64,000 nt of DNA from a virus (IMGVR_UViG_3300010396_000003:1-64000); one strand, 5' to 3'. Shown: positions 35,548-58,831, counted from the stretch's first letter. Translations and numbers: made by a program. The notes: generated by a model not told the origin, from the sequence alone.

Positions 35548-35583
35548 GCACTACAGATACACAAAACGGTGAACCGATGATAA

Positions 35584-44934: not shown

Positions 44935-45023
44935 TGGAGGAGCCGAAGGGATTCGAACCCTTAATACCTTACGGTATCGTCTGTTTTCAAAACAGGTGCC
45001 TTGACCATTTCAGCCACGGCTCC
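44935..45023 (-). tRNA. tRNA-Ser(TGA)
   Basis: Hand-folded: acceptor GGAGCCG/CGGCTCC, anticodon loop TTTGAAA, long variable arm, T-loop TTCGAAT, encoded CCA. Confidence 0.65.
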
Positions 45024-45025
45024 CC

Positions 45026-45115
45026 TGGAGGATGACGGCGGAATCGAACCACTAACCGATCTCTCGGTTACCCCACGCTTCGAACGTAGTTGGCGACCAT
45101 TCGCCGGCGCCATCC
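45026..45115 (-). tRNA. tRNA-Ser(CGA)
   Basis: Acceptor GGATGGC/GTCATCC (one GU), anticodon loop TTCGAAG, long variable arm, CCA. Confidence 0.6.
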
Positions 45116-45119
45116 GATA

Positions 45120-45206
45120 TGGCGGAACGTCCGAGACTCGAACTCGGGACACCTTGCGGTGTTCCTGCTTTCCAAGCAGGTGCAGTAGCCACTGTGCCAA
45201 CGTTCC
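45120..45206 (-). tRNA. tRNA-Ser(GGA)
   Basis: Acceptor GGAACGT/ACGTTCC, anticodon loop TTGGAAA, long variable arm, T-arm CCGAGTTCGAGTCTCGG. Confidence 0.65.
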
Positions 45207-45216
45207 GTTATTTTTT

Positions 45217-45302
45217 TGGCGGGGATGGTGAGAATCGAACTCACGACACCTTGCGGTGTTCTATCTTAGCAGGATAGTGCCGTACCACTGGGCCACATCC
45301 CC
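45217..45302 (-). tRNA. tRNA-Ser(GCT)
   Basis: Acceptor GGGGATG/CATCCCC, anticodon loop CTGCTAA, long variable arm. Confidence 0.65.
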
Positions 45303-45346
45303 GAACTTGAGCTAGAACTACTTGACGAATCTTCTGACATTTCGTT

Positions 45347-45565
45347 CTACCCCTTCGTAAGATGGTGCCGATGGCACTCGCGACAGAAATAAATTCGAAG
45401 TTTAGCGCGCAATCCGATCATCGCTTTACGCGCGCGATCCCGGCTTGGATAAGATATTTTGCCGGATTTTTCGCAAACAGGGAATGGTAGCTCTCGATGA
45501 TATTCAAAAGAAACTTCCTCAAGAACGCCCTCGATTACTTCCATAGCAACGCGATAATACCACAA
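45347..45565 (-). CDS. hypothetical small zinc-ribbon protein
   Basis: 72-aa ORF with CEKSG...CRECHRHH inside the tRNA array. Confidence 0.25.
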   Translation of the reverse strand: MWYYRVAMEVIEGVLEEVSFEYHRELPFPVCEKSGKISYPSRDRARKAMIGLRAKLRIYFCRECHRHHLTKG

Positions 45566-45601
45566 ATTACGGCGATAATTACATTGATTACCAGATAGAA
45601 A

Positions 45602-45675
45602 TGGTCCCTATCCGGGGAGTTGAACCCCGCTTGCCGGCTTTTCAGACCGGAGTCTTGCCGCTAGACGAAATAGGG
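45602..45675 (-). tRNA. tRNA-Phe(GAA)
   Basis: Acceptor CCCTATT/GATAGGG (C1-G72), anticodon stem CCGGT/GCCGG, loop CTGAAAA, discriminator A, CCA. Confidence 0.6.
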
Positions 45676-45680
45676 ATTAA

Positions 45681-45754
45681 TGGTAGAGATGCCGGGAATT
45701 GAACCCGGTGCTCGGCTTCCCGAAAGCCGCGATCGACCGTCCATCTACATCTCT
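45681..45754 (-). tRNA. tRNA-Pro(CGG)
   Basis: Acceptor AGAGATG/CATCTCT, anticodon loop TTCGGGA, T-arm CCGGGTTCAATTCCCGG. Confidence 0.6.
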
Positions 45755-45755
45755 A

Positions 45756-45832
45756 TGGTGGCAGAGGCGGGATTCGAACCCGCAGTTCCTTGCTCCCAAA
45801 GCAAGTGGGATAAGCCGTTACCCTACTCCGCC
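45756..45832 (-). tRNA. tRNA-Pro(TGG)
   Basis: Acceptor GGCGGAG/CTCTGCC, anticodon loop TTTGGGA, T-arm GCGGGTTCGAATCCCGC. Confidence 0.65.
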
Positions 45833-46151
45833 AAACTTTGCTTCCACAATTTCATTTTCTGTCGCGGATCGTTTCGCGGTGCAGCTCGAGCCCGCGCGTC
45901 AACTACCTGGTGCAGTGCCAGCGGAAAGATCAATTGTTCAATCTTCGCCGGAATCTTCTCGATCAAGAATTCGTAAAACCACTTCTGCCACATCTTCGGA
46001 TTATGGCGATCATCAAAAACTTGTGGAGTACTCGGCATCGACCAGCAACCAAAACAGTTCATATCTGGTCCACCAGTCGCCAAGTATGTAAGGTTTTGAA
46101 ATGCTGTTATTCCACCGATCGTCGCTATATACACGCTTTCCTCAAAAAAAA

Positions 46152-46226
46152 TGGAGCCGATGGTCACGCTCGAAGTGACAGAGGACGGGTACAAGCCGTC
46201 TGCTTTTCCTCTTAAGCTACATCGGC
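46152..46226 (-). tRNA. tRNA-Thr(TGT)
   Basis: Acceptor GCCGATG/CATCGGC, D-stem GCTT/AAGC, anticodon stem GACGG/CCGTC, loop CTTGTAC, T-arm GTCACTTCGAGCGTGAC. Confidence 0.65.
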
Positions 46227-46372
46227 AATATTTTTACAAAGACGAATCTTTTTACTTCCGTCTTCCAATATGACATGCACGCATTCTTTGCAGTTATTGA
46301 CGTGCTGTCTTTGAGCATCGCTAAGTTCGCTCATACGGTACATTTTTTCAGTAAATGGTATTTCCATAAACT

Positions 46373-46446
46373 TGGAGCGGTTGACGAGAATCGAACTCGC
46401 GCTAAGACGTTGGCAACGTCCTGGACTACCACTATCCGACAACCGC
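46373..46446 (-). tRNA. tRNA-Gly(GCC)
   Basis: Acceptor GCGGTTG/CAACCGC, anticodon loop TTGCCAA, T-arm CGAGTTCGATTCTCG. Confidence 0.65.
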
Positions 46447-46501
46447 AAAAGAGTCGGCATTCGAATGACGCGCTTTCAACGCTACCGACTCTTCAAAGAA
46501 C

Positions 46502-46575
46502 TGGAGCGGGCGACGAGACTTGAACTCGTTTAGTCAGCTTGGAAGGCTGATGCACATCCTATATGCCACACCCGC
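46502..46575 (-). tRNA. tRNA-Gly(TCC)
   Basis: Acceptor GCGGGTG/CGCCCGC, anticodon stem TCAGC/GCTGA, loop CTTCCAA. Confidence 0.65.
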
Positions 46576-46595
46576 AAGAAGGCTATAATAGCCTA

Positions 46596-46934
46596 ATGCC
46601 AATTAAAAATAAAGTCTTACGGTTGGCTAATCAGCGTCGTTATAAAAAGGAAGTGTGGTACCCAGCCAACCGTAAACGACATATCACAACCGTTGTCAAA
46701 AGAAAAAATCAAATACTACGTTACATACGAGACATAAAAAGGAAATCAAAATGTTCTCGCTGTTCGGAAAGCGACCCGCGCTGCTTAGATTTTCATCATC
46801 TAAATAAAAATAAGACAATCTCTTTAAGCCAAGCTGCTGCGAATGGATGGTCTATATGTAGGATAGATAACGAAGTTGCGAAGTGCGAAGTTCTATGCTC
46901 CAACTGTCATCGCAAACTCCACACAAAATGGTAG
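46596..46934 (+). CDS. HNH homing endonuclease-like protein
   Basis: CSRCSESDPRCLDFHHLN...CSNCHRKLH is an HNH motif. Start taken at MPIKNKV to avoid the upstream tRNA. Plus strand inside the minus-strand tRNA array. Confidence 0.5.
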   Translation: MPIKNKVLRLANQRRYKKEVWYPANRKRHITTVVKRKNQILRYIRDIKRKSKCSRCSESDPRCLDFHHLNKNKTISLSQAAANGWSICRIDNEVAKCEVLCSNCHRKLHTKW

Positions 46935-47004
46935 CGGGGGATGGGATCGCACCATCCTAGCCCGGTTTATGAGACCGGTCAGTTCTCTAGAACTGTACCC
47001 CGCG
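46929..47004 (-). tRNA. tRNA-Met/Ile2-type (CAT), atypical C1:U72
   Basis: Anticodon stem CCGGT/ACCGG, loop CTCATAA, T-arm GATGGTGCGATCCCATC. The first acceptor pair is a C-U mismatch and the T-loop has G55. Confidence 0.5.
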
Positions 47005-47011
47005 TCAGACC

Positions 47012-47085
47012 TGGAGCCGCTTGGTGGAATCGGACCGCCGTTTGCTGCTTACCATGCAGCCGTTCTGCCACTGAACTAAAGCGAC
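47012..47085 (-). tRNA. tRNA-Thr(GGT)
   Basis: D-stem GTTC/GAAC, anticodon stem GCTGC/GCAGC, loop ATGGTAA. Confidence 0.6.
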
Positions 47086-47111
47086 CACGAAACTTCATCT
47101 TATCACAAAAT

Positions 47112-47185
47112 TGGTAGGGCGGAGCGGAATCGAACCGCCGTCTTACGATAGAGAGTCGTAGGTCCTGCCATTGAACGACCGCCCC
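47112..47185 (-). tRNA. tRNA-Glu(CTC)-like
   Basis: Acceptor GGGGCGG/CCGCCCT, anticodon stem TACGA/TCGTA, loop CTCTCTA (position 37 is T, which is unusual), T-arm GGCGGTTCGATTCCGCT. Confidence 0.45.
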
Positions 47186-47370
47186 ACTTATTTTTTCCTC
47201 GGCAATAAATCGATTGTCGGAAATTCGTACCAGAGTGCGCGCCGCTTTTCCATTAGCTTATCAAGTTTAGTACTGAGCTCTTTTTCTCCCGCACTAAGCA
47301 CAATATATTCCTCAGTCAGCTTATACATCTCTTCCTGGGCAATTGCCTGATGATCCATTTTGACCTCAAT

Positions 47371-47444
47371 TCTGGAGCCGAGTGAGAGAATCGAACTCTC
47401 GTCTGCGGATTACGAAGCCGCCGTTCTGCCACTGAACTAACCCG
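47371..47444 (-). tRNA. tRNA-Thr(CGT)
   Basis: D-arm GTTCAGTGGCAGAAC, anticodon loop TTCGTAA, T-arm GAGAGTTCGATTCTCTC. Confidence 0.6.
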
Positions 47445-47667
47445 ACTAAATATCTGATGCCTCGCGCGTATGACGATAGTCGCGCGAGCGTTCCGCAACA
47501 TAACTTGAATCCAATTCTTGACCAACGCTATCGACGCGCCAACCATCAACACCGAGAATTCTAATATACTTTCCGACAACCGCATGCTTTGACGGGATCC
47601 ACGCTGTCTGATGCATCGATCCTCGAGATAATTCACATTGAGTATGAGTCATTCATCACCAAAAAAA

Positions 47668-47745
47668 TGGGGCGTCATGTCGGTTTCGATCCGACACTCC
47701 GGGTTCCACAGACCCGTGTGCAAAGCCACTACACCAATGACGCCA
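47668..47745 (-). tRNA. tRNA-His(GTG) with encoded G-1
   Basis: Extra 5' G before acceptor GCGTCAT, anticodon stem CGGGT/ACCCG, loop CTGTGGA, discriminator C. Confidence 0.7.
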
Positions 47746-47884
47746 TCGAAATCTGAAGGCTGGCTGTTTCGTTGCTCGGCGCCAGCCTTCGTTCATGCAC
47801 GCAACCCGAGGCATTATTGGGACAGTTGGTTGCCTCTTCCGCGCTAAGCGGTCTCAACGGGACGACCGAAGGCTACGCGCAATA

Positions 47885-47958
47885 TGGTTCGGGAGGAACG
47901 AGTCGAACGTTCGTCTGCTGAGTCAAAGTCAGCTATGCTGCCTTTACACCACTCCCGA
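47885..47958 (-). tRNA. tRNA-Gln(TTG)
   Basis: Acceptor TCGGGAG/CTCCCGA (U1-A72), anticodon stem GCTGA/TCAGC, loop CTTTGAC. Confidence 0.65.
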
Positions 47959-47963
47959 TCAAA

Positions 47964-48037
47964 TGGTTCCCGGGGGACGAGTCGAACGTCCGTTTCCGCT
48001 TTCAGAGAGCAGCGTCCTGCCTCTAGACGACCCGGGA
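47964..48037 (-). tRNA. tRNA-Gln(CTG)
   Basis: Acceptor TCCCGGG/CCCGGGA, anticodon loop CTCTGAA, T-arm GGACGTTCGACTCGTCC. Confidence 0.6.
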
Positions 48038-48042
48038 TCCGT

Positions 48043-48078
48043 ATGCAAAATTAAACAAATTTGTTTAATTTTGCATAT
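48043..48078. repeat. perfect 36-bp palindrome (tatgcaaaattaaacaaa/tttgtttaattttgcata)
   Basis: Exact inverted repeat between two tRNA genes; candidate protein-binding site or hairpin. Confidence 0.6.
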
Positions 48079-48082
48079 AAAC

Positions 48083-48156
48083 TGGTAGCCCGTGGTCGAA
48101 TCGAACGGCCGTAGTCGGTGTGTAGGACCGATGCTCTACCCCTGAGCTAACGGGCT
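48083..48156 (-). tRNA. tRNA-Val(TAC)
   Basis: D-arm GCTCAGGGGTAGAGC, anticodon stem TCGGT/ACCGA, loop CCTACAC. One C-A mismatch in the T-stem. Confidence 0.6.
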
Positions 48157-48162
48157 TCAAAC

Positions 48163-48246
48163 TGGTGCGTCAGGGGAGATTCGAACTCCCATGTCTTTCG
48201 ACGGAAGGGTTTGAGCCTTCTGCGTATACCGTTCCACCACTGACGC
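48163..48246 (-). tRNA. tRNA-Leu(CAA)
   Basis: Acceptor GCGTCAG/CTGACGC, anticodon stem GAAGG/CCTTC, loop CTCAAAC, long variable arm, T-arm GGGAGTTCGAATCTCCC. Confidence 0.65.
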
Positions 48247-48725
48247 TAATCCTTTTTCTTCGTAAAACTGATCAACTGCAAGTTTACACCAATTGCCGGT
48301 TCCGAAGGTGTTTCATAGTTCGGCGCTACCTGATCAGCATGCAAATAGCCCGTAACCAAGGCCGGCGGTGCACATGTTTCATTTCCATTCGGAGACGTTG
48401 GAATACAGCCCATCACAAAGAATGTTGTCGTCGTCCATGGCGGAGCGACCGTGAATGTAACTCCGAAATTTAGATTTGAATTCCTAACGGCCGGACTATT
48501 AATCCTGCCAGCAAACAGATAGGAATTACCGTCACTCTCTTTCACGCATCCGGTTGGAGAATAAAGAGAGGTACAAAGAACTCCAACTAGAAAATGATCC
48601 GCGGTATTACCTGGCTTCGAATAGTCGTAATTCCAAGAAAGAACAACAGTGCTCTGCGACGTGTTCTGAGCTCGCACACATGTCGCTATCAAAGCCAAGA
48701 AGATTACTTTGAGTAAGACTCGCAT
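48246..48725 (-). CDS. secreted hypothetical protein
   Basis: 159 aa with signal peptide MRVLLKVIFLALIATCVRA, Cys-containing and beta-rich, embedded in the tRNA array. Confidence 0.4.
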   Translation of the reverse strand: MRVLLKVIFLALIATCVRAQNTSQSTVVLSWNYDYSKPGNTADHFLVGVLCTSLYSPTGCVKESDGNSYLFAGRINSPAVRNSNLNFGVTFTVAPPWTTTTFFVMGCIPTSPNGNETCAPPALVTGYLHADQVAPNYETPSEPAIGVNLQLISFTKKKD

Positions 48726-48737
48726 GTTGCCTCAATA

Positions 48738-48830
48738 TGGTGGTCGTCCTGAGAATCGAACTCAGCCGTTGCGCTAATCTGGCGCTTTCGCGGGATTATA
48801 AAGCCCGCCCGCTCTCCAAAGCTGACGACC
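48738..48830 (-). tRNA. atypical 93-nt tRNA-like gene (anticodon unresolved, possibly TAT)
   Basis: Clean acceptor GGTCGTC/GACGACC, discriminator A, CCA and T-arm CTGAGTTCGATTCTCAG. The 5' half does not fold into a standard D/anticodon arrangement; candidate loop CTTTATAAT. Confidence 0.35.
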
Positions 48831-49003
48831 TAAACACGTTTGATATTTTGTGGAAAGTGTTTTTCCATAAGTCCAGACATTTCTTTCTCTGTACCGTATG
48901 GATAATCAGCCCACAATCCACGCTTACCGTCTCCATCTGGATCACACCAGCGGCAACCATTAACAGGCTTGCGCGGATCACCGTTACACCATATGTGATG
49001 TCC

Positions 49004-49081
49004 ATTCATAAATTGGCGGTCCGTACCGGATTTGAACCGGTGTTCTTTTCCGTGACAGGGAAACGGGGACTCCAGACTCCC
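49004..49081 (-). tRNA. tRNA-Asp(GTC)
   Basis: D-arm GGGGAGTCTGGAGTCCCC, anticodon stem TTTCC/GGAAA, loop CTGTCAC, discriminator G. Confidence 0.65.
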
Positions 49082-49113
49082 CTAACGGACCTTATATTTT
49101 AGCCCCGCAAGTA

Positions 49114-49187
49114 GAACAAACTTTGGTAGGGATAAGGGGAATCGAACCCCTGTTCTGTCCTTGAAAGGGACTTATCCTGCCACTAGA
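49114..49187 (-). tRNA. tRNA-Glu(TTC)
   Basis: Acceptor GGGGATA/TATCCCT, anticodon loop CTTTCAA, T-arm AGGGGTTCGATTCCCCT. Confidence 0.6.
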
Positions 49188-49194
49188 CGATATC

Positions 49195-49278
49195 CCCATA
49201 AATTTGGTGCGCGGAGGGAGATTCGAACTCCCACGCCCGAAAGCACCTGGTTCTAAGCCAGGCAAGTCTACCGTTCCA
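49195..49278 (-). tRNA. tRNA-Leu(TAG)
   Basis: Acceptor GCGCGGA/TCCGCGC, anticodon stem CCTGG/CCAGG, loop CTTAGAA, long variable arm. Confidence 0.65.
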
Positions 49279-49562
49279 TCATCCGCGCTAAAAATTAACT
49301 TTAATCTTTTTCTTCTTTCGAATCACGCCATTTCTTCCGTCGACGGCATAATCAATTGTGATCGTCCGCGGCCGGCCAACCTTGCGCGTCCTCGATGCAA
49401 ATATATATTTGCCCAAGTTCTCATCGCAGGCATATTCGACATTATTAGGATTCTCTTTAACGCGTCGCAACGGCAGCGCACATAATCCATAACCAAATGT
49501 TACACCATAATCCCTAATACAACTTCTGCTAACGCGAAACGATGTCATTACTCTCCAATCTG

Positions 49563-49637
49563 GTAGTCCACGGCAGAGTCGAACTGCCTTCTCGACGTTC
49601 GGATCGTCGGATCCTGTCCGTTGAACGAGTGGACCTC
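49563..49637 (-). tRNA. tRNA-Arg(CCG)
   Basis: Anticodon stem CGACG/CGTCG, loop ATCCGAA, T-arm GGCAGTTCGACTCTGCC. Confidence 0.6.
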
Positions 49638-49857
49638 AAACCGCAAATAGTTTCTGCCGCACGCGATACCCTGTTCCGCCATCATTACCATTAAGTTCGA
49701 CCATTTCGATGAATGGGCACTCGTCCAGTTCCGTAATTTCGCAGCATAGACCGTGATATTTGCGGAAGACACGCACCGCATCAGTCGAGCACGTCGCCTC
49801 TACGCACGTTACGCCTAAACCATGATCTCCTTCCCATTCCACTACCCACATGCTCAA
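49636..49857 (-). CDS. hypothetical small protein
   Basis: 73-aa ORF between tRNA genes. Confidence 0.25.
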   Translation of the reverse strand: MSMWVVEWEGDHGLGVTCVEATCSTDAVRVFRKYHGLCCEITELDECPFIEMVELNGNDGGTGYRVRQKLFAV

Positions 49858-49980
49858 TGCTTCCTCCTAATCTCCCGCACGAAATACAATGCTACGCAGC
49901 CGATTAGAATCGCCACGCATCCTACCGCGAAAGCTGCGGCGCCAAGCATGAATCCCAGTATATAACTCACGATTGTCATT

Positions 49981-50055
49981 TGGCAGCTCCACGGAGAATC
50001 GAACTCCGATCTTCTTGTTAGGACCAAGACATCCTTTCCATTGAACGATGGAGCC
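49981..50055 (-). tRNA. tRNA-Arg(CCT)
   Basis: Acceptor GGCTCCA/TGGAGCT, anticodon stem TCTTG/CAAGA, loop GTCCTAA. Confidence 0.6.
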
Positions 50056-50737
50056 AAAAAAAATTGGCGGAGTTATAAGCAGTGGGGTTTATGGCCGCCT
50101 GATATCGCAGGATCGACTACATGCCCGGCGTTTGGATCCTCCGGCGAGCTCGGCTTTTCGTCCGGCGGCTGTCCCTTGGTAATCAGGTCTTTAGTCCCTG
50201 TTCTGCCCACGTCCTCACGGATAGCGGCATCCGCCACAACGAACGGCGTTCTATAATTCACGTTGATGCAAAAAGGAGTTATAAACTCCCGCAACGCGAA
50301 CACGCCGCCCAAGAGCCGTCTGGAAACCGCAGTTTATTCCGGCTGGCTACGAGAGAATTGACCACCAGATTCTTCACATCCGGTGTCGTACCGTCAATTC
50401 AACCAACCCAAGCTGCACGGCTCTATCTCAATACTGACCGAACGTTTAACGCCAACGCCCGCGACTTCACTCGTAATGCGCTGGGCCACTCTCACGAGTT
50501 AAGCTTCCCTATCCCAGCCTTAGTGTGTGATTTCCACACATTCGGGGTCGTGACTTTAGAGTTTCTGTCGCTTCTACGCTAAACCGTCCAACCCTCGCGG
50601 GATTACATGGAATTTTGGCGTAGCCATCCTAGATCGACTTTTTGATTTAAGCTGCCTTTGCTCTGTGGCACCGGAGCCAATCACGGCTAGTCGTCCAACC
50701 GTTGATGTGCGCTTTTCTCGGTCAAGCTTCAAGAAAA
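50056..50737. other. about 680-nt GC-rich noncoding tract within the tRNA array (candidate structured RNA)
   Basis: No protein-like ORF (the 153-aa ORF 50121-50582 is Arg-rich and of low complexity). Higher GC than the flanks, no tRNA fold found, and bounded by tRNA-Arg genes. Confidence 0.3.
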
Positions 50738-50814
50738 TGGTAGGGCGTGAAAGAGTCGAACTTTCGTGTCTGGTTTCGTAGACCAGCCCCTCTATTCCGC
50801 TAGGGTAACGCCCC
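50738..50814 (-). tRNA. tRNA-Arg(ACG)
   Basis: Acceptor GGGGCGT/ACGCCCT, D-stem CCCT/AGGG, anticodon stem CTGGT/ACCAG, loop CTACGAA. Confidence 0.65.
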
Positions 50815-50847
50815 ATTAAAATTGAACGCCACTAATATATATCAATT

Positions 50848-50925
50848 TTGGTGCGGCTGGTGAGATTTGAACTCACAAAAATACGAGTCTGAGTCGTACG
50901 CGTATGCCGGACTCCGCCACAGCCG
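50848..50925 (-). tRNA. atypical tRNA with Leu anticodon CAG but short variable arm
   Basis: Acceptor GCGGCTG/CAGCCGC, discriminator A, anticodon stem TACGA/TCGTA, loop CTCAGAC, 5-nt variable region, enlarged D-arm GCGGAGTCCGGCATACGCG. Confidence 0.45.
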
Positions 50926-51114
50926 CTAAGCTTTTTCTAATATATCTTGTATCGGATTAAAACAATCCGGCCGATCATACATAATGTATCGCCAAGTGTT
51001 TTTCGGCGCAAATATAGAAGCAGATCCATCACTAAAATAGCGGTCTTTGATTGTGTAAATCAAAGTATCACCTTTAATACGGACCTTCTCGCCGATATTA
51101 AATTTTGGCTTCAA
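50926..51114 (-). CDS. hypothetical small protein
   Basis: 62-aa ORF immediately downstream of a tRNA. Confidence 0.25.
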   Translation of the reverse strand: MKPKFNIGEKVRIKGDTLIYTIKDRYFSDGSASIFAPKNTWRYIMYDRPDCFNPIQDILEKA

Positions 51115-51125
51115 GTTTAGCCTTG

Positions 51126-51212
51126 GTTAAAAAAATGGTGGATGGTGAAGGACTCGAACCTTCGTAGCTCCAAGGAGCGCCTGGGTTACAGTCAGGTAGA
51201 ATTGCCGCTATC
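51126..51212 (-). tRNA. tRNA-Tyr(GTA)
   Basis: Acceptor GGATGGT/ACCATCC, anticodon loop CTGTAAC, long variable arm GCTCCTTGGAGC, T-arm GAAGGTTCGAGTCCTTC. Confidence 0.6.
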
Positions 51213-51327
51213 TCAACCATCCGAAAATTATCGTGATAGTGACCCCATATTGCGCTTTCGCGCGGCGGGAGTTTGCTGGTCACCCTGGACCCGAAGGCAC
51301 CCACTCCCGAGGTATATATCACGAACT

Positions 51328-51414
51328 TGGTGCGCGAGAGAGGATTCGAACCTCCACGCCGTAAATTGGCACAACGCCCTCAACGTTGCGTGTCTGCCTT
51401 TCCACCACTCGCGC
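51328..51414 (-). tRNA. tRNA-Leu(GAG)
   Basis: Acceptor GCGCGAG/CTCGCGC, anticodon stem CAACG/CGTTG, loop TTGAGGG, long variable arm. Confidence 0.65.
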
Positions 51415-51419
51415 AAATC

Positions 51420-51493
51420 TGGTACCGGCGTCTAGAATCGAACTAGCGTCACACGATTATCGGTCGTGGGCTCTGCCACTGAGCTACGCCGGC
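51420..51493 (-). tRNA. tRNA-Ile(GAT)
   Basis: D-arm GCTCAGTGGCAGAGC, anticodon stem CACGA/TCGTG, loop CCGATAA. Confidence 0.6.
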
Positions 51494-51501
51494 ACAAAAA
51501 T

Positions 51502-51576
51502 TGGAGGTGAGGGTGAGAATTGAACTCACGAATAAAGGTTTTGCAGACCTTCGCCTTACCACTTGGCTACCCCACC
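51502..51576 (-). tRNA. tRNA-Cys(GCA)
   Basis: Acceptor GGTGGGG/CCTCACC, anticodon stem AAGGT/ACCTT, loop CTGCAAA. Confidence 0.65.
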
Positions 51577-51577
51577 A

Positions 51578-51653
51578 TGGTAGCTCCGGCGTGAATCGAA
51601 CACGCTTGTACTCGTTTAGAAGACGAGTGCCTATTCCTGTCGGCCACGGAGCC
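51578..51653 (-). tRNA. tRNA-Arg(TCT)
   Basis: Acceptor GGCTCCG/CGGAGCT, anticodon stem CTCGT/ACGAG, loop CTTCTAA. Confidence 0.6.
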
Positions 51654-51656
51654 AAA

Positions 51657-51681
51657 CCGCGTCACGCCGTACAGGCGTGAC
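51657..51681. terminator. 10-bp perfect hairpin gcgtcacgcc-gtaca-ggcgtgacgc (possible bidirectional terminator)
   Basis: Perfect stem with a 5-nt loop. TTTAGAG follows on the plus strand and GGTTTGG on the minus strand. Confidence 0.45.
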
Positions 51682-51898
51682 GCTTTAGAGCATTCTTACT
51701 GTGAAATTGGATCTCACATGCCTTGCAAAATGCGCGAGACATGCGAGCCAACTTTAAACGTTCAGAGTGAGCGAAAATACCAGCGTAGTTACCGAATCGG
51801 CTATGAGATGCCTTATGGACTCCCTTGCCGACCTTACGCCCTTTCCTTCCGCCATCGTGACCCATCTTTGACCTCCTCTAGTACTTACCTAGGGAAAG

Positions 51899-52603
51899 TC
51901 ATCGGCGGTCTCCTTGTTCTTGTTCATGTTTTCTCCGAAACCAATCACGAATCTGGACTAATTCTTTTTTATTACACTTAAACTTAAAATGTTTTGTCTC
52001 AGTCCTGAATCGGGTTTTTGGAACCACATCGTCATTTTCAATTACCCATTCAGTGTACTGCACTTTAGTGGTCTCGCTCCAGGTGCGAAACCAATATTTT
52101 GATTTACGCCGATTTTCGATTAGCTCCCAATTAGATCCGTCCGAAAGAGGAATTCTGGTTATCTCGTCTTTCACACGATCTCTGTGTCGCCAAGGGCGCC
52201 GGCACCGATCGGAAGTCTTTTGCAGAATTCCGGCTTCATCGCGAAAGAAATCAGGAGTGGTCTGATGGCGTACCGCTCCTAAGCCTTCGGCATGAACGTA
52301 ATATGCGAGATGCCCCAATAGGTGCGCGCCAATCATCGAGCGCTTGTCATTCACCCGACAAATCTCGGAATAGACGTCATCCCATTTCCGGCCTACTTGA
52401 CCATCAAGGAACCGATACAACGGTGAGAGTTTGTCTCCCTGCGACTTCCGATCAAAGCCTCGATGCTTTGGATGCATCGAAACGTGAGACGGTGAATTCT
52501 CGAAATCGTTGCGGCTTTCTTGCTGAAATAGTTTAACTTCGCCTTTTTCAAAACCGCCGTGTCGGCCGGTTTCGATGATTACTTCTTTCATATCGGAACG
52601 CAT
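51899..52603 (-). CDS. hypothetical protein
   Basis: Start reassigned to MRSDMKEVII (GGAGGA RBS) because the longer ORF would overlap tRNA-Asn; basic and aromatic-rich, about 234 aa. Confidence 0.4.
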   Translation of the reverse strand: MRSDMKEVIIETGRHGGFEKGEVKLFQQESRNDFENSPSHVSMHPKHRGFDRKSQGDKLSPLYRFLDGQVGRKWDDVYSEICRVNDKRSMIGAHLLGHLAYYVHAEGLGAVRHQTTPDFFRDEAGILQKTSDRCRRPWRHRDRVKDEITRIPLSDGSNWELIENRRKSKYWFRTWSETTKVQYTEWVIENDDVVPKTRFRTETKHFKFKCNKKELVQIRDWFRRKHEQEQGDRR

Positions 52604-52689
52604 GTTTGTGGATCCTCCGCCACTACATACTTCTGCATTCCATGGTTCACCTCCTAATGAAGATCGTACCCAAAATGGGTACATAAAAA

Positions 52690-52766
52690 TGGCTGGCACC
52701 CCCGGACTCGAACCGGGACCGTTCTCCTTAACAGGGAGACGTCCTACCGAATTGGACCAGATGCCA
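52690..52766 (-). tRNA. tRNA-Asn(GTT)
   Basis: Acceptor TGGCATC/GGTGCCA, D-arm GTCCAATTCGGTAGGAC, anticodon stem TCTCC/GGAGA, loop CTGTTAA. Confidence 0.65.
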
Positions 52767-52868
52767 TCATATATAAGTTTTTAGATAATCGGCTTGATTA
52801 CCGTTTGGCGCTTGCCGATTTTTTCCATGGCGCTATTAAGCGCCGACCACACAACTCTTCTCATAATT

Positions 52869-52945
52869 TGGTGCGGGACGCGAGGCTTGAACTCGCAAAA
52901 CCCAGGGTTTAAACCTGGTACGTATGCCGATTCCGTCAGTCCCGC
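52869..52945 (-). tRNA. atypical tRNA with Leu anticodon TAA but short variable arm
   Basis: Acceptor GCGGGAC/GTCCCGC, discriminator A, anticodon stem CCAGG/CCTGG, loop TTTAAAC, 5-nt variable region. D-arm ACGGAATCGGCATACGT is similar to that of the CAG tRNA at 50848. Confidence 0.45.
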
Positions 52946-53483: not shown

Positions 53484-53669
53484 TTACGCAGCCTTATTCT
53501 TTGCTCGATAGCGGGCTTGCGCCGCTCGATTCTTACACCTGTGTTCAAAGTATTGATGGGTGCGGGAAATCGGTTTAAAGGATCTTCCGCACCCACAGAT
53601 ACATTTACGCTTTTGCGAGCTCTGCTTCGAGAACTGCGAGCTCGTTGTCAAGGGCTGTGCGCTTTTCAT
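53484..53669 (-). CDS. small basic zinc-ribbon protein
   Basis: 61 aa with CICGCG...H..C and a KNRAAQARYRAKNKAA tail. Confidence 0.3.
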   Translation of the reverse strand: MKSAQPLTTSSQFSKQSSQKRKCICGCGRSFKPISRTHQYFEHRCKNRAAQARYRAKNKAA

Positions 53670-53907
53670 CCGGTGTCTTCAAGGTTTCACGACGAGCCTT
53701 GACTGCCTTAATACGAGCAGCCAGACGGTCGCGGTTCTTTGCCTTGATCTCCCTGCGAATTGACTGAGCATTCTCAGCGATCCACTCCGGAAGTTCAACG
53801 CCCAGTTCCTTGGCCTCATTTTCAAGCGCACGGGCATATGCAGACAGTTCTAGTAAATCATCAATGTCCATGCGATTAAGTGTTGCACTCTTGAGTTCGA
53901 TTAACAT
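53605..53907 (-). CDS. hypothetical coiled-coil protein
   Basis: Start reassigned to MLIELK (AAGGAAAGGAGG RBS); about 100 aa, helical. Confidence 0.35.
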   Translation of the reverse strand: MLIELKSATLNRMDIDDLLELSAYARALENEAKELGVELPEWIAENAQSIRREIKAKNRDRLAARIKAVKARRETLKTPDEKRTALDNELAVLEAELAKA

Positions 53908-54263: not shown

Positions 54264-54281
54264 TCCGTGCCTCCCTTGTGG

Positions 54282-54602
54282 TTAGCTGTTGGCAATTTCT
54301 AGCAGAACATCGGCGTGGCACGGCTGATCGAGTGGGCAAAAACAAGCCAAGTCTTTGCCGCGAAGTTCTGATCTGATCGCTTCTAACATCCCACTTTTGA
54401 TGTGTACGTACTCGCAGAAACATGCAATCGAATCCTCGATCGATCGGACGGCGAAGTAGCCCGTAATGCCTATTTGCACGCCCGGTCGCATTTTCTTTGT
54501 GATTACAAATGGGTTTCCGAATTTACCGGGCCGGGTGACGCAAACGGTATTCTCTGGCATTCGCCATCCCTTCGTGCGCTTGCGCTGAATCCGTTTCGGC
54601 AT
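54282..54602 (-). CDS. DUF4326 family protein (second paralog)
   Basis: GKFGNPF...DLACFCPLDQPCHADVLL, the same signature as 3911-4243. Confidence 0.55.
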   Translation of the reverse strand: MPKRIQRKRTKGWRMPENTVCVTRPGKFGNPFVITKKMRPGVQIGITGYFAVRSIEDSIACFCEYVHIKSGMLEAIRSELRGKDLACFCPLDQPCHADVLLEIANS

Positions 54603-54763
54603 TCCGTGCCTCCCTTGTGGTTAGGAAACGTGGCGTCGGCATCTCAGCCGAAGATTGCATTTGTCGCCTTCACCGCAGCGAGTGCCATACTATCGGCCTG
54701 CGGATCATCGTCTCGGCAGCAATCCATTGTTTTGATGCTCTGCGCATTGCGCCACGAAACTGT

Positions 54764-56251
54764 TTATATCGTTACCTTCGATAAAACACCATCATAGGCG
54801 CCACTTAATTTCAAAAGTGGTGCATCCATAATTTCATCGACAAGGCTGTAGCGGTTAGTCCGCATGGTCTGAACCAGGTTCGGCAATGCATAATAATCGA
54901 TCCTTGTACCACGAAGATCAAATACTTGCATGTCGATGCCTGCGTGACGCATGGAACTAATTAGCGTTTCATATCCGCCGTCACAATGATACAGGTAAAC
55001 AGGCAAATCCTTGCTGAACTTATCCGCATAAGCCTTGTGGACATCCGGAAAAAACGGCGGCGTGTTTTCTTGGGCATCGGAAACGATGGCAACTCCATCG
55101 ATATCGTGTCCGTTTTCAAGAATCCACTTCAAACCGCAGCCCACAGACGTTCCTCCATCGGCTTTAATATAGCGTGTCTTGGCTTTGATTGCGTCTAGGG
55201 ACATGCCCGTAACGTCAATCGCGTGCGGAGCCGTATCAAAGAACACCAAATACACCTTCCCCTTAACCATCTTGGCAAGAGTAGCTGACACTTCTACGGC
55301 AACGTTAATCGCTTGGCTCATCGATCCCGACTTATCTCCGAGAACAACCCAATTGCCATCAACGCCTGCATTCTGCAGTTTGCGCTCCTGAACGCCACGA
55401 AGTTTTTCCTTGAGTTCCTCGTCTTCGATTGCCTCTGCCGCAGTCGTAGCCTTAAGTAGGTTATCAGAGCTCTTGGCTGCGCGCGTCAATGCTTCCTCGA
55501 ACGCTCCGCGGAGTGCAGAATTCGCCTTTACTCCAAGACGCTCCAACATTTTCGTATTGTTGATAACCTCGTTGGCAGTCATCTGCTTCATCAGCGCAAG
55601 GACAAGATCCGGTTCCTTCGCCTTTTCACCGAGGGCACCGATTGCAATCAGGAACGGAATCTTGCGGGTCATAATCGTTCCCGCCGCTTCGAGTGGAGTC
55701 ATGTTCTTGAGGTTGGCAACAGCCTCAAACAATGAACCGCTCGGATATGGAGCCTTTTTCTTATCGAGTGTCCGTCCGTGCAGAAAGATATTAGCAAACT
55801 CAGCCGGCTTCACATGCACAAGGCTATAGAGAGACCGCATCGTTTCCCTGTGCTGCAATGCCATACGCTCGAAGCGCGGTGCGTTCGCCTCCGCCTTCTT
55901 TAGATATGCAGCAACCAGACGGGACATTGTTGACATACGTCCCGGCAACTTGACATCCATTGCAAAATGCAATGCCTTGAGAAGTTCACGCGGATTGAGT
56001 ATCGTCAAATGAGCCCATGAGTTTTCCGCGAGTTCGACAGGGAAGTCATTGGCCGACAAAGATACGATCGGCAATGCCACCTTCGCATCGCGGATCTGTC
56101 CCTTTGAACGATCCCAGGCAATCAGGTGCGCCAAGAATTCCGGTTCCTTCTTTGCCGCTTCTCGACCGAGAGGAACGTATTCTTTCAGTTCGCCGTGGGT
56201 CGAACGCGTCAATTCTGAAATAATTCTGTTCTTGGTCAATCCAGTTTCCAT
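54764..56251 (-). CDS. Ro60/Rsr-like TROVE + vWA protein candidate
   Basis: 495 aa. The C-terminal part has a von Willebrand A MIDAS (VVLGDKSGSMS ... DGGTSVG ... VSDAQEN) after a long helical-repeat N-terminal region, which is the Ro60 domain order. Two permuted tRNA-mimic (YrlA-like) RNA modules lie 1.7-2 kb upstream on the same strand. Confidence 0.45.
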   Translation of the reverse strand: METGLTKNRIISELTRSTHGELKEYVPLGREAAKKEPEFLAHLIAWDRSKGQIRDAKVALPIVSLSANDFPVELAENSWAHLTILNPRELLKALHFAMDVKLPGRMSTMSRLVAAYLKKAEANAPRFERMALQHRETMRSLYSLVHVKPAEFANIFLHGRTLDKKKAPYPSGSLFEAVANLKNMTPLEAAGTIMTRKIPFLIAIGALGEKAKEPDLVLALMKQMTANEVINNTKMLERLGVKANSALRGAFEEALTRAAKSSDNLLKATTAAEAIEDEELKEKLRGVQERKLQNAGVDGNWVVLGDKSGSMSQAINVAVEVSATLAKMVKGKVYLVFFDTAPHAIDVTGMSLDAIKAKTRYIKADGGTSVGCGLKWILENGHDIDGVAIVSDAQENTPPFFPDVHKAYADKFSKDLPVYLYHCDGGYETLISSMRHAGIDMQVFDLRGTRIDYYALPNLVQTMRTNRYSLVDEIMDAPLLKLSGAYDGVLSKVTI

Positions 56252-56263
56252 GTTCGACCTCCG

Positions 56264-56998
56264 TTAAGATAATTTCCGGTTCTTCAAATATTCTTCAATT
56301 ACCGCAAAATCAAGACCGCGCTTCTTACAGAATTCCTCTGGATCGCGGTTGCCTTTTTCCTTATTACAACGCTTGCACGCGGTCACGAAATTAAACTCAT
56401 TATTGTCGCCGCCTAGTTCGAGTGGGCGCCAATGGTCAATCGTTAATAGCGTCTTTCCCATCGGCACGGCGCAATATAGGCACTTGAATCCATCGGCTGC
56501 CCATATCTTCTGCTGGACGGCACCAGAAATGGCGTAGCGCAACTTCCGATGAAAAATCTTCGGAATCGTTGCGCCCTGTCCGTTTGGCTTCGGTCCAACA
56601 AGGATCTCGGGATCATCGGTGCGCTGAATAAAGTCTGACCATTCATCGACGGTCAATTCTTTGAAATTAATGTCGGTATCGTTGCAACAAATGTCCGGCA
56701 TCGTGTCGGGCAGAAACAAACACATCGCATCTGAATCGGAGCCAACAATAATCCCATTGATACGGACTAAGTTTCCGATATCACCATATAATGCCGGACG
56801 GCCGCTCAACTTCATCAAATAAAATCTGTCGTCGCTCTTTGGCATCAGAGAACCTTCCGAATTAACGCAGTAAATAAAAACATCGCAACAATCGCAGCCA
56901 TAAACCAAATAGCGGCCGTCAAGCGCACAACAATATAGGCATGTTCTATGAACCATATGGTAAAGATCATAAAGACCGCCAAGCCAGCAATGATCCAT
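56264..56998 (-). CDS. HNH endonuclease domain protein
   Basis: C-terminal CLYCAVPMGKTLLTIDHWRPLELGGDNNEFNFVTACKRCNKEKG is an HNH motif. N-terminal Cys-rich domain unknown; the true start may be an internal Met. Confidence 0.5.
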   Translation of the reverse strand: MDHCWLGGLYDLYHMVHRTCLYCCALDGRYLVYGCDCCDVFIYCVNSEGSLMPKSDDRFYLMKLSGRPALYGDIGNLVRINGIIVGSDSDAMCLFLPDTMPDICCNDTDINFKELTVDEWSDFIQRTDDPEILVGPKPNGQGATIPKIFHRKLRYAISGAVQQKIWAADGFKCLYCAVPMGKTLLTIDHWRPLELGGDNNEFNFVTACKRCNKEKGNRDPEEFCKKRGLDFAVIEEYLKNRKLS

Positions 56999-57100
56999 AC
57001 TTTCATAAATTTGGTGTCCGCCTTAGCAGACAGTAGTCGGTTAAATAATCAACAATTCCATAACCGTGATAACCCACAATCAACAACCAACAATCAACAG

Positions 57101-57117
57101 AATAGTTGCGATATAAT
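57101..57117. repeat. perfect palindrome TTGCGATATAATCGCAA containing a TATAAT box
   Basis: Exact 7-bp arms around ATA, inside a 260-nt CAA-rich noncoding tract. Confidence 0.5.
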
Positions 57118-57261
57118 CGCAATCACCTTGTCGGTGGAAGTTGAAGCGCGGTTATCGTACCGAATGGACGCTGCGCTTTTATCGAGTGCACAGTCCTCTA
57201 GACTACTCTCTCCCGCCTCGGCGGACATTGAATCGACGGCAAGGCAGCCTGTCGAAATTGT

Positions 57262-57588
57262 TTAGGAAACTTTTGATTTGGCTGGCACTAACTCGCCAAG
57301 CACATCGTCATCGCGCTCGTAGTTCTGGACGTTCACGCTTTGGTTTGTCGATTTAATCGCTTCGTCCAGAATTCGAATCTCACGTGCGACTTTGGTTATC
57401 GTATTGTCCAGAGCCACTACATCATAAAGAGGCTCGATAACCTGGTGCTTGTCGGCATTGGCACCATAATGGACGGTCTGCCGATGCGAATTTTCATTGC
57501 GAAGACTTACAAGTTCACCGTGGCGTGTCGTTAGGGTCTGCTTCCACGCTATTGCTGCCGAGATTGTGATTGGTCCCTTCATGATCAC
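57262..57588 (-). CDS. hypothetical protein
   Basis: 108-aa ORF. Confidence 0.3.
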   Translation of the reverse strand: MIMKGPITISAAIAWKQTLTTRHGELVSLRNENSHRQTVHYGANADKHQVIEPLYDVVALDNTITKVAREIRILDEAIKSTNQSVNVQNYERDDDVLGELVPAKSKVS

Positions 57589-57772
57589 CCTTTCTCAAAT
57601 CGTAGATTGCGAACGGCTCAAACTCACCGCAAATTCCGTAACCGATACCAACCTTTTGCGTGGTGTGTAGTTCAGGATCCGTCTCACCAAACTCTCCCGT
57701 TAGGGAAAATGCGAACCTCGCCACTCCGCACTTATTACAACTATAAACAATAACGAACGGAGGTTTGTTCAT
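57515..57772 (-). CDS. hypothetical small Cys-containing protein
   Basis: Start taken at MNKPPFVIVYSCNKCG, just downstream of tRNA-Ala. Overlaps the previous ORF, so one of the two may be wrong. Confidence 0.25.
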   Translation of the reverse strand: MNKPPFVIVYSCNKCGVARFAFSLTGEFGETDPELHTTQKVGIGYGICGEFEPFAIYDLRKGDHEGTNHNLGSNSVEADPNDTPR

Positions 57773-57776
57773 AAAA

Positions 57777-57850
57777 TGGTGGAGGAAAGGAGAATCGAAC
57801 TCCCTCTTACTGGGTGCAGACCAGTCGTCATTCCGGTAGACCATTCCCCC
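57777..57850 (-). tRNA. tRNA-Ala(TGC)
   Basis: Acceptor GGGGGAA/TTCCTCC with the G3-U70 wobble pair, anticodon stem ACTGG/CCAGT, loop TCTGCAC, T-arm GGGAGTTCGATTCTCCT. Confidence 0.6.
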
Positions 57851-57954
57851 ATAAATTTACTGGCGTCAAGTCGTTTTGCTTTCGGCTTAGCCGAACGATT
57901 AGCAGTCGTGTAAGCAAAACAGTGGACGCCAAAATCAACTGCCACAAAGAAAGA

Positions 57955-58100
57955 TTGACGCTAAGTCTTAGTGCTTTTTTTTACGCGCTCTACCACTGAG
58001 CTATAGGCTCCGTTTGGGAGCCTAGTTGGATTCGAACCAACGACCTCGGTCTCCATCAGGACATGTAAGCCCTAAAGTGAGCGTCAAGAAATATTGACGG
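57955..58100 (-). ncRNA. Y-RNA-like (YrlA-type) tRNA mimic, module 1
   Basis: Minus-strand order: T-arm GUUGGUUCGAAUCCAAC, then acceptor 3' strand UAGGCUC, then closing loop CCAAACG, then acceptor 5' strand GAGCCUA, then U8 A9 and a canonical D-arm GCUCAGUGGUAGAGC. No anticodon arm. The flanks UUGACGCU/AGCGUCAA can pair into a long bulged helix. Confidence 0.4.
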
Positions 58101-58140
58101 AAAGTCGAGAGAGGTAAAATTCATTGTTCCTCAAAAGGAA

Positions 58141-58165
58141 GTCCCCCATTGGCGGGGACTGTGGG
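58141..58165 (-). terminator. rho-independent terminator (GUCCCC-GCCAAU-GGGGGAC + UUCCUUUUG) after module 2
   Basis: Reverse complement of 58141-58165 forms a 6-7 bp GC stem followed by a U-rich tract. Confidence 0.5.
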
Positions 58166-58345
58166 TATGAGCCACAACATGTAACCTGCTCTACAGTGTC
58201 CGTCAAAACTGAATTGGCGCAAAATCTAGCACGGTTAACTTCGTGTCTTTGCCATTAGACTAGCCCCTCACAGTTGATGAGGGGCCTAGGATTCGAACCT
58301 AGAACTCGACCTTATGATGGTCGCGTGTATCGTACTAAGTGTGCG
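58166..58345 (-). ncRNA. Y-RNA-like (YrlA-type) tRNA mimic, module 2
   Basis: Same permuted layout as module 1: T-arm CUAGGUUCGAAUCCUAG, acceptor 3' GCCCCUC, loop AUCAACUGU, acceptor 5' GAGGGGC, then UA and D-arm GUCUAAUGGCAAAGAC. The flanks GGCGCA/UGCGCC pair. Confidence 0.4.
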
Positions 58346-58510
58346 CCAAACTTAATCCCGGAAATCGTTCTGCTTTGTCCTTTCGGACGCCGGATTTGAA
58401 CCGGTTCTTCACTTTAATGGAGTGATGCTGAACCAATCAGCACGTGTAAGCCGAACAGTGCCGGGAATAGGAGAATAAACGTTTACTTGGTTTCGTGTCA
58501 AGGACAATCT

Positions 58511-58831
58511 TTAAGAAGTTCCAGCAGTAACTCGCACATGGCAGCGATGAATAAATGGATACTGTACATCTAAAATAGCAACACGGCACTCGTAACGTTC
58601 TTTGAATAGTCGGATTATTTCTTGAAGGTTAGCCCAAGCAATCGATCCCGATTCTTTCTGCGCTTGTTGGAGAAGATCACCGGAAGGCATTAATCGAATA
58701 GTTGGATTATCCGGTATGAGCGTATAGGCATAAATTTCCGCTGTATCGCCGCCGTATCCGTTACACCCATGAAAGGCATCGCTCAGTTCAGACCATGCTC
58801 GTAATGCTTGACGGATAGTAATATCATTCAT
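58511..58831 (-). CDS. hypothetical protein
   Basis: 106-aa ORF. Confidence 0.3.
   Translation of the reverse strand: MNDITIRQALRAWSELSDAFHGCNGYGGDTAEIYAYTLIPDNPTIRLMPSGDLLQQAQKESGSIAWANLQEIIRLFKERYECRVAILDVQYPFIHRCHVRVTAGTS

Follow-up and report, generated by a model that had tools for sequence, protein, structure and literature searches.

Ro60 and Y RNAs are conserved from bacteria to humans, and we know of no established role for the tRNA-like domain of the bacterial Y RNAs. A stretch of viral DNA of 64,000 nucleotides (nt) (IMGVR_UViG_3300010396_000003:1-64000, the whole of which is called the window in the following) raises the question whether it encodes a Ro60/Y-RNA ribonucleoprotein of its own. 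The window is DNA of a soil phage with genes for a terminase, a head protease, tail proteins and baseplate-type proteins; all of its large genes lie on the minus strand. On this strand it carries a gene for a 495-amino-acid (aa) protein, currently annotated as hypothetical, and, 1.6-2.2 kb upstream of it, an array of tRNA-like RNAs that is unannotated and across which no genes are called. Based on sequence comparison and structure modelling we predict, with a probability of about 0.8, that protein and RNAs form a phage-encoded Ro60/Y-RNA ribonucleoprotein module.

The array consists of five tandem Y-RNA-like modules of 71-134 nt (E0 to E4, 58467-57861, minus strand), separated by spacers of 6, 9, 8 and 24 nt. 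The 1.6-kb gap to the Ro60-like gene exists because a tRNA-Ala gene, a small open reading frame (ORF) and an HNH gene intervene. All modules share one frame: the 5' half runs through a terminal stem of 7-8 bp, CACU, a second stem of ~9 bp and ACAYG into the cargo, and the 3' half consists of the second stem's complementary strand, GAYUU and the complementary strand of the first stem. The two end helices flank a conserved asymmetric internal loop (5' CACU / 3' GAYUU), and an invariant UACAYG comes after the helices. The first stems differ between the modules yet stay complementary (CCCGG/CCGGG, GGCGCA/UGCGCC, GACGGA/UCCGUC, GACGCU/AGCGUC and GGCGUC/GACGCC). A strict scaffold pattern found the five modules together; elsewhere in 128 kb (both strands) it gave six weaker hits (6/7 paired), which are chance matches.

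In E3 the tRNA-like domain order of T arm, looped acceptor and D arm, with a terminal stem replacing the anticodon stem, can be read directly from the sequence. Its core at 57986-58041 (minus strand) starts with the T arm GUUGG-UUCGAAU-CCAAC. Then come the 7 bp of the acceptor helix (UAGGCUC/GAGCCUA) plus an additional G:C pair, capped by CAAAC as a 5-nt loop, and after these U8 and the perfect D arm AGCUCAGUGGUAGAGC. The core of E1 at 58245-58302 (minus strand) has the T arm CUAGG-UUCGAAU-CCUAG and a closed acceptor helix of 7-9 bp, after which UA and a merely degenerate D-like hairpin (GUC-UAAUGGCAAA-GAC) are found; upstream of the T arm E1 carries an extra 5-bp hairpin with the 7-nt loop AUCAUAA, and 58286-58337 gives a partial Rfam tRNA match of 22 bits. 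E2 is degenerate: its T-like arm has 5 bp and the 7-nt loop CUCAUAC, its acceptor-like hairpin (AGUCCCC/GGGGACU) is rich in G+C, and the hairpin in the D position is rich in U. In E0 the cargo follows the natural tRNA order, namely a D-like hairpin, a hairpin with a 7-nt loop, the T arm CCGG-UUCAAAU-CCGG and a GUCC-GAAA-GGAC hairpin, and its orthologue in a related locus (L001, 3998-4114) is called as a tRNA-like element by ARAGORN. Judged by sequence, E3 is a circularly permuted tRNA mimic of the YrlA type, and E0, E1 and E2 are variants of it. E4 is a minimal module (UGGCGUC-CACU-GUUUUGCUU-ACACG ... AAGCAAAAC-GACUU-GACGCCA) with two small apical hairpins.

A preliminary description of this DNA had identified the two cores of E3 and E1, and the sequence there reads as it described, with flanks that pair into a bulged helix around the YrlA-type order. 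The YrlA covariance model matches E3, and in folding all five modules beat shuffled sequences (z -4.0 to -6.0). Several details had to be corrected. Instead of two modules there are five in tandem, the closing loops measure 5-7 nt and not 7-9 nt, and the perfect D arm claimed for both cores holds for E3, while that of E1 is degenerate. The clean intrinsic terminator attributed to the second module is a hairpin (58160-58140) that lies within E2, preceded by the 5-bp arm with the 7-nt loop and followed by UU and the small D-position hairpin. The same acceptor-hairpin pattern (CCCCC-loop-GGGGG-UUC) occurs in related modules, and the hairpin is more likely the acceptor mimic of E2 than a terminator, although some terminator activity is possible.

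In a sensitive scan of 57600-58700 (1.1 kb), the Rfam YrlA model (RF02553) matched 57952-58087 (minus strand) over its complete length (model positions 1-114; 40.9 bits, E 2.2e-7). When 11 orthologous YrlA-type modules were folded together with RNAalifold, the closing stem, the second stem, the T arm, the closed acceptor and the D arm were recovered, with compensatory changes in 24/33 predicted pairs and covariation of all 7 acceptor pairs. The scaffold behaves likewise: in 35 unique trimmed scaffolds 89.7% of the cells were paired and double changes were found in 14/15 pairs, which was matched by 0/500 shuffles, and controls with a slid register were 27-46% paired. Pairing of the first stem was a selection criterion of the scaffold search and pairing of the second stem was not; the second stem was still 79-91% paired, with many compensatory changes. 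The sequence of the first stem is free to vary within the family, in which CACU, UACAYG and GAYUU are the conserved elements. A covariance model of the trimmed scaffold (R1) finds only modules with short cargo, because long inserts exceed its window; these are E4 (55.2 bits, E 2.8e-15) and E2 (43.8 bits, E 1.4e-11). R1 was replaced by explicit pattern-plus-pairing scans with the opposite strand as control. The YrlA architecture of the RNA modules, with T arm, looped acceptor and D arm within a bulged end helix, is supported by these data. E3 has no anticodon arm, and ARAGORN, which detects permuted transfer-messenger RNA (tmRNA), reports nothing at 57861-58467. A permuted tRNA gene, tandem tRNAs and a two-piece tmRNA were rejected as identities on the grounds of the missing anticodon arm, the absence of an ARAGORN call and the covarying acceptor.

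For the protein, Ro60 proteins are the sole matches in fold over the full length. Its AlphaFold2 model, for which 38 homologues were used (predicted local distance difference test score 80.7), shows ~18 helices followed by an alpha/beta domain. In a Foldseek search of this model against PDB, ranks 1-13 were all Ro60/TROVE chains with 500-560 aligned columns, among them phage phiLo Ro60, D. radiodurans Rsr, human Ro60 and Xenopus Ro60, whereas from rank 14 on the vWA domain alone was covered. The residues of MIDAS, the metal ion-dependent adhesion site (DxSxS...T...D), D306, S308, S310, T368 and D392, are invariant in both family alignments. A profile of 38 diverse family members from an exhaustive homologue search (A6) was compared by hhalign with five aligned phage proteins annotated as Ro (A5; Bxz1, Myrna, FuzzBuster, Trina and Jay2Jay) at 98.5% probability (E 2.4e-15, 385 columns), spanning query positions 46-457 and template positions 91-515 and hence the helical as well as the vWA region. 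The narrow profile A1 against the single sequence of Bxz1 gp220 had given an insignificant 0.9% probability, so that significant homology to Ro60 was reached only with the diverse profile against the canonical alignment. Consistent with this, the 495-aa protein matches phrog_850 at E 4.5e-8, the group to which Bxz1 gp220 belongs (2.8e-140). Profile comparison and fold modelling indicate that it is a true, deeply diverged Ro60 homologue invisible to Pfam TROVE, with a predicted ring-type helical-repeat domain and a vWA domain with intact MIDAS.

Protein and RNAs are linked in related phages. Homologues at 38-61% identity are encoded on 76 viral contigs, in which the strict scaffold pattern gave 44 hits on the gene strand versus 0 on the other. 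A relaxed pattern combined with pairing of the second stem gave 108 hits on the gene strand versus 1 on the opposite strand, in arrays of up to six modules. Of the mapped modules 96/104 are upstream of the gene; the median distance of the nearest one from the start codon is 245 nt, and in ten loci it is only 24-40 nt. A first scan in the reverse direction, which was too strict, gave 5 stretches, of which 3 were unpaired and matched by chance. The reverse scan of viral contigs with the exact motifs returned ~120 stretches; 9 were well paired and all of these are on contigs encoding the protein, and the ~110 other matches were unpaired and taken as chance. The scaffold covaries and is tied to the Ro60-like protein family across related phages.

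The cargo held by this scaffold is far more variable than the frame. Among 89 unique modules from the related loci, 9 carried a clear YrlA-type cargo with the T arm before the D arm and 23 a T arm with a divergent D arm. Natural-order tRNA-shaped units were called by ARAGORN in 14 modules, natural-order cores without such a call were found in 6, and 22 had short cargo with no tRNA feature; of the remaining 15, one has just a D arm and 14 belong to none of these classes. Within the window, E0 represents the natural-order core (with its GAAA hairpin), E1 and E3 the permuted type, E2 the degenerate and E4 the minimal one. In the ARAGORN-called units the 5' acceptor strand is the invariant UACAUG and the anticodons include UUA, AAU, AUC and UAU, and some scaffolded cargo scores as a good Rfam tRNA (for example L003 4482-4554 at 67.9 bits).

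Several tRNA-shaped cargos inside scaffolds of the related loci have unusual anticodons, UUA (which reads the UAA stop codon), AUC, AAU, AAA and UAU (L012 2828-2902, L065 7448-7523 and 6807-6878, L017 4180-4255, L073 in the module 4423-4537, and L010 4470-4543). A free-standing tRNA with the anticodon CUA is present at L003 1358-1432. Relatives also encode tRNA-ended RNAs that have a T arm, an anticodon-like arm and an acceptor stem, the latter often with encoded ACCA, and in which the place of the D arm holds the loop-closed CGACUU-hairpin-UACUG...UACAUG scaffold (L004 3542-3656, L007 3845-3960, L003 ~4585-4700, L016 ~4000-4130, L019 ~2850-2980 and L029 ~495-620). Two of them are called by Rfam as tRNAs with a long insert. 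Their fold is that of the Y RNAs, with the opening at the acceptor and not at the protein-binding stem, and none of this type was found in the window.

Several results weigh against a Ro60/Y-RNA module. The Pfam search of the 495-aa protein gave only a weak vWA_CoxE match, and TROVE (PF05731) was matched neither by this protein nor by any of the close (0/38) or distant (0/10) family members, while in the control Bxz1 gp220 matched TROVE at E 9.4e-50 and also carried vWA_Ro60. The preliminary description, which had placed the 495-aa ORF correctly beside an HNH gene, a DUF4326 gene and 34 tRNA genes and had proposed its Ro60 identity, had named the absence of a TROVE domain as a refutation; Pfam indeed finds none, but the more sensitive profile and fold tests overturn this and uphold the identity. 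Searches of PDB sequences with the protein and with the narrow profile A1 likewise returned no Ro60 and just a weak vWA match. At Rfam gathering thresholds only tRNAs are reported, as E3 stays under the YrlA cut-off of 69 bits. This cut-off may miss phage examples of such Y RNAs too, because the region immediately upstream of the Ro gene of mycobacteriophage Bxz1, which belongs to a group with published YrlA-like RNAs (PMC4201824), reached only 32.5 bits with the same model. The published GNCGAA(N0-1)G motif, which lies close to the 5' end and is the suggested contact of Rsr, is absent, since E1-E4 begin with GNCG and lack CGAA there, and as the stem motifs differ from it, the mode of protein recognition is not simply transferable. 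The relaxed scaffold pattern was detected in only 37/77 sequences, and the co-occurrence of RNAs and protein partly reflects shared descent, all loci being from one clade of related phages. No gene for polynucleotide phosphorylase (PNPase) or RNA repair was found among the 20 larger ORFs of the window.

That phages encode Ro60 together with YrlA is already known (published in 2014 and 2025); what is new here is a divergent protein clade, different conserved stem motifs, the size of the array and the modular cargo. In 254 bacteria and 22 phages, YrlA has been described on the strand of the Ro60 gene and no more than 4 kb away from it (PMC4201824; Chen et al., 2014). The window shares with these YrlA/Rsr systems, including Bxz1 gp220, a protein of Ro60 fold with vWA domain and MIDAS, and Y RNAs at less than 4 kb on the same strand. 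A bulged stem formed by the RNA ends, an interior tRNA mimic of T arm, looped acceptor and D arm, and a short hairpin-type Y RNA alongside (YrlB-like, here E4) are also common to both. The 7-bp acceptor is also that of M. smegmatis YrlA, an RNA that RNase P cuts and to which CCA is added (PMC4201824). Unlike the proteins of those systems, the window protein is not recognised by Pfam TROVE; its RNAs have CACU / UACAYG / GAYUU in the stem and not GNCGAA(N)G, none of which three is found in the Bxz1 element, and five tandem modules with far more varied cargo stand against the one or two RNAs that are typical. In the Thermus phage phiLo, Ro60 binds two Y-like RNAs encoded upstream and the host PNPase (PDB 9KOP, 9L5Y; PMC12135203). 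The window resembles it in having a phage Ro60 with Y-like RNAs encoded upstream, and phiLo Ro60 is the best Foldseek match (E 8e-10). In contrast, phiLo Ro60 is annotated as TROVE, its Y-like RNAs, two against the five here, were found by the CGAA motif, and the proteins are only 15-18% identical in the structural alignment.

'Ro-like RNA binding protein' is annotated in 355 phage records, mostly of actinophages. In one of these phages with a canonical Ro gene, Rhodococcus phage Trina, a 209-nt pseudo 'tRNA-OTHER' feature lies immediately upstream of that gene (L212 243-451 = NC_042040 84277-84485) and is probably an unrecognised Y RNA. In searches with the 495-aa protein, tblastn gave a single match, in an uncultured 595-kb phage (27.8% identity), while the metagenomic homologues number ~1,000, those with a source name all being labelled 'hypothetical protein'. 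At E <= 1e-30 the family comprises 352 clusters in a set of 1.84 billion representative proteins, and it is encoded on at least 76 viral contigs. Among 185,579 species representatives it was found on 7 contigs from metagenome-assembled genomes, mostly of Acidobacteriota, and in 0 isolate genomes, so that by these sequence counts the clade is close to phage-only.

How such a module would work can be proposed by analogy. The array and the tRNA-Ala, which is probably on the same precursor, would be transcribed as one RNA from which host tRNA-processing enzymes cut out the single modules. Ro60 proteins carry Y RNA on the outer surface and single-stranded RNA in the central cavity. In the same way as Y RNA is bound by Xenopus Ro, the outer face of the Ro60-like ring would take up the conserved bulged stem. 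The tRNA-like cargo would serve as an adaptor by which the ring is tethered to host RNA enzymes, or would regulate access to these enzymes, for which the PNPase of the phiLo system is the precedent. E1 and E3 are predicted substrates of RNase P because their acceptor helices are 7 bp long, and may be opened and receive CCA as M. smegmatis YrlA does. The phage would thereby re-tune the decay or quality control of structured RNAs during infection. The roles put forward in the preliminary description, regulation of tRNA or rRNA decay or decoying of host factors, are speculative. The specific role as an exoribonuclease adaptor is possible, with somewhat less than an even chance.

It is unlikely that the module instead acts as a counter-defence decoy, in which tRNA mimics soak up or report host tRNA-targeting nucleases or immune effectors while the ring stabilises or recycles them. 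Such a role would suit a cargo of varied tRNA look-alikes, which in relatives extends to whole tRNA-shaped units with unusual anticodons, as well as the 33-gene tRNA array that the module adjoins. A parallel is offered by gp130 of phage Bas63, a protein of Ro60-like structure encoded upstream of tRNA genes that is reported to counter the Ppl defence (PMC11482910). As a stand-in for it we used ORF86 of Felix O1, chosen by its position upstream of the tRNA block in the same phage genus. Like the window protein, ORF86 is a phage protein of ~470-500 aa with a C-terminal vWA-like domain, encoded beside tRNA genes and not recognised as TROVE. The two families differ in other respects: the gene lies upstream of tRNAs in that family and downstream of a Y RNA array here, the Felix O1 ORF86 / Bas63 gp130 family is without defined Y RNAs, and it was rejected as the identity of our protein as it belongs to another family (DUF2828 + DUF7788) that hhalign aligned at 19.8% probability and in the vWA region only. 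Moreover, no defence or anti-defence gene was identified beside the module.

A broader version, which we consider somewhat less likely still, would see in the phage-restricted Ro60 clade a single protein-binding stem used as a chassis for interchangeable tRNA look-alikes. YrlA-type permuted mimics, natural-order cores, units with unusual anticodons and the acceptor-opened fold with encoded CCA in relatives would then form a panel in which every member, as decoy or adaptor, has its own target among the tRNA-binding enzymes and tRNA-targeting immune nucleases of the host, and a conserved 100-aa protein would be the third subunit.

Quality control or chaperoning of phage tRNAs is less probable than either. 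In this case the scaffold would be a paired leader and trailer that marks tRNA-like precursors for the ring, and complete tRNAs would be matured from them. The ARAGORN-callable natural-order units, some of them good in Rfam, would fit, as would the tRNA-ended RNAs with encoded ACCA and internal scaffold, and eukaryotic Ro60 binds misfolded small-RNA precursors (PMC4201824). But 0/34 ordinary tRNAs of the window sit in a scaffold, E2, E3 and E4 cannot yield a tRNA as they lack an anticodon arm or any tRNA core, and the 'acceptor' of most natural-order modules measures only ~3 bp.

Very improbable, and largely refuted, is that the RNAs are independent of the protein, as decayed, rearranged or permuted tRNA genes or tandem-tRNA artefacts beside a generic helical-repeat and vWA protein with a non-RNA role: the modules do lie in a tRNA-rich region, Pfam sees just a weak vWA domain and the T arm of one tRNA with the D arm of the next can mimic YrlA (Chen et al., PMC4201824), but within one module the two acceptor strands are complementary and show covariation at all 7 positions, neither an anticodon arm nor a second tRNA half nor an ARAGORN call accompanies E3, a non-tRNA scaffold is conserved and covaries across 35-89 modules, and the full-length fold matches are exclusively Ro60, with significant homology at the profile level.

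If the locus is a Ro60/Y-RNA module, its value lies more in the pattern of the family than in the single locus. A constant protein-binding stem with free cargo would offer natural swap experiments on the purpose of the cargo, and the signature CACU ... UACAYG ... GAYUU with paired flanks is easily searched. Phage Ro60 systems would be more widespread and more diverse than the annotated records suggest. The features of the locus are collected in Table 1.

Table 1. Protein and RNA features of the Ro60-like locus and its surroundings in the window
Feature	Coordinates	Strand	Description and basis
E0	58355..58467	(-)	z -4.5; scaffold UUCCCGG-CACU-stem2-ACACG ... GAUUU-CCGGGAU
E1	58215..58348	(-)	z -6.0, no shuffle equals; scaffold UGGCGCA-CACU ... 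GAUUU-UGCGCCA
E2	58095..58205	(-)	z -4.3; scaffold UGACGGA-CACU ... GACUU-UCCGUCA
E3	57956..58086	(-)	canonical YrlA type; T arm, 7-bp looped acceptor, U8 and perfect D arm in the scaffold
E4	57861..57931	(-)	z -4.8; minimal 71-nt long hairpin, YrlB-like
Divergent Ro60 (TROVE + vWA) homologue, 495 aa	54764..56251	(-)	N-terminal helical repeats, C-terminal vWA
Sigma-70-like promoter candidate TTGACA-18-TATTCT	58472..58501	(-)	consensus scan; ends few bases upstream of E0
tRNA-Ala(UGC)	57781..57850	(-)	ARAGORN; Rfam tRNA 50.6 bits; 10 nt downstream of E4
HNH endonuclease	56264..56845	(-)	Pfam HNH/HNH_5, PHROG HNH families; 193-aa product per gene callers
DUF4326 gene	54282-54602	(-)	between Ro60-like gene and 100-aa protein gene
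91-aa ORF	53988-54263	(-)	between Ro60-like gene and 100-aa protein gene
Conserved 100-aa three-helix protein, invariant motif LKTPDEKR	53605..53907	(-)	synteny, structure model
Array of 33 tRNA genes	44935..52945	(-)	ARAGORN, Rfam; downstream, same strand

The 100-aa protein with the LKTPDEKR motif may be a partner of the Ro60-like protein and a third component of the module. Its gene lies directly downstream of the Ro60-like gene in 67/76 related loci, often overlapping it, and its structure model is confident, while no match was found in Pfam, PHROG or the fold search. In the window the DUF4326 gene and the 91-aa ORF separate the two genes; these look like a local insertion, because homologues of the two are absent from all related loci (0/76). 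The HNH gene ends 12 nt before the start codon of the Ro60-like gene, and full-length HNH homologues are found immediately upstream of the Ro60-like gene in ~20/76 related loci. This gene may be functionally coupled to the module or may be a homing-type insertion. ARAGORN found 34 tRNA genes in the window; the array of 33 is regarded as context of the Ro60-like locus. The sigma-70-like site is a promoter candidate only, for which the sole argument is its position at the head of the array, as the scan gave one site in the region versus 1.9 expected from shuffles.

The identical protein and locus are also present on a 152-kb assembly contig and in the Joint Genome Institute metagenome sample 3300010373. 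Megablast of 54000-59000 against GenBank phages gave no match, and no cultured phage is related at the DNA level. Outside the locus the window encodes unusual cargo for a phage, namely an ABC-transporter ATPase with an adjacent multi-pass membrane protein (59202-61206, minus strand) and a 596-aa protein with a C-terminal OmpA domain (61671-63461, minus strand). A sugar-modification cluster at 34312-39964 (minus strand) comprises a UDP-glucose dehydrogenase, three glycosyltransferases, an FkbM-type methyltransferase and an ATP-grasp (R2K) protein. Among the structural genes an SPFH/Band-7 protein is encoded at 10248-11207 (minus strand); a Band-7-like lipoprotein adjoins the Ro gene of Rhodococcus phage Trina, too (L212 2242-2766).

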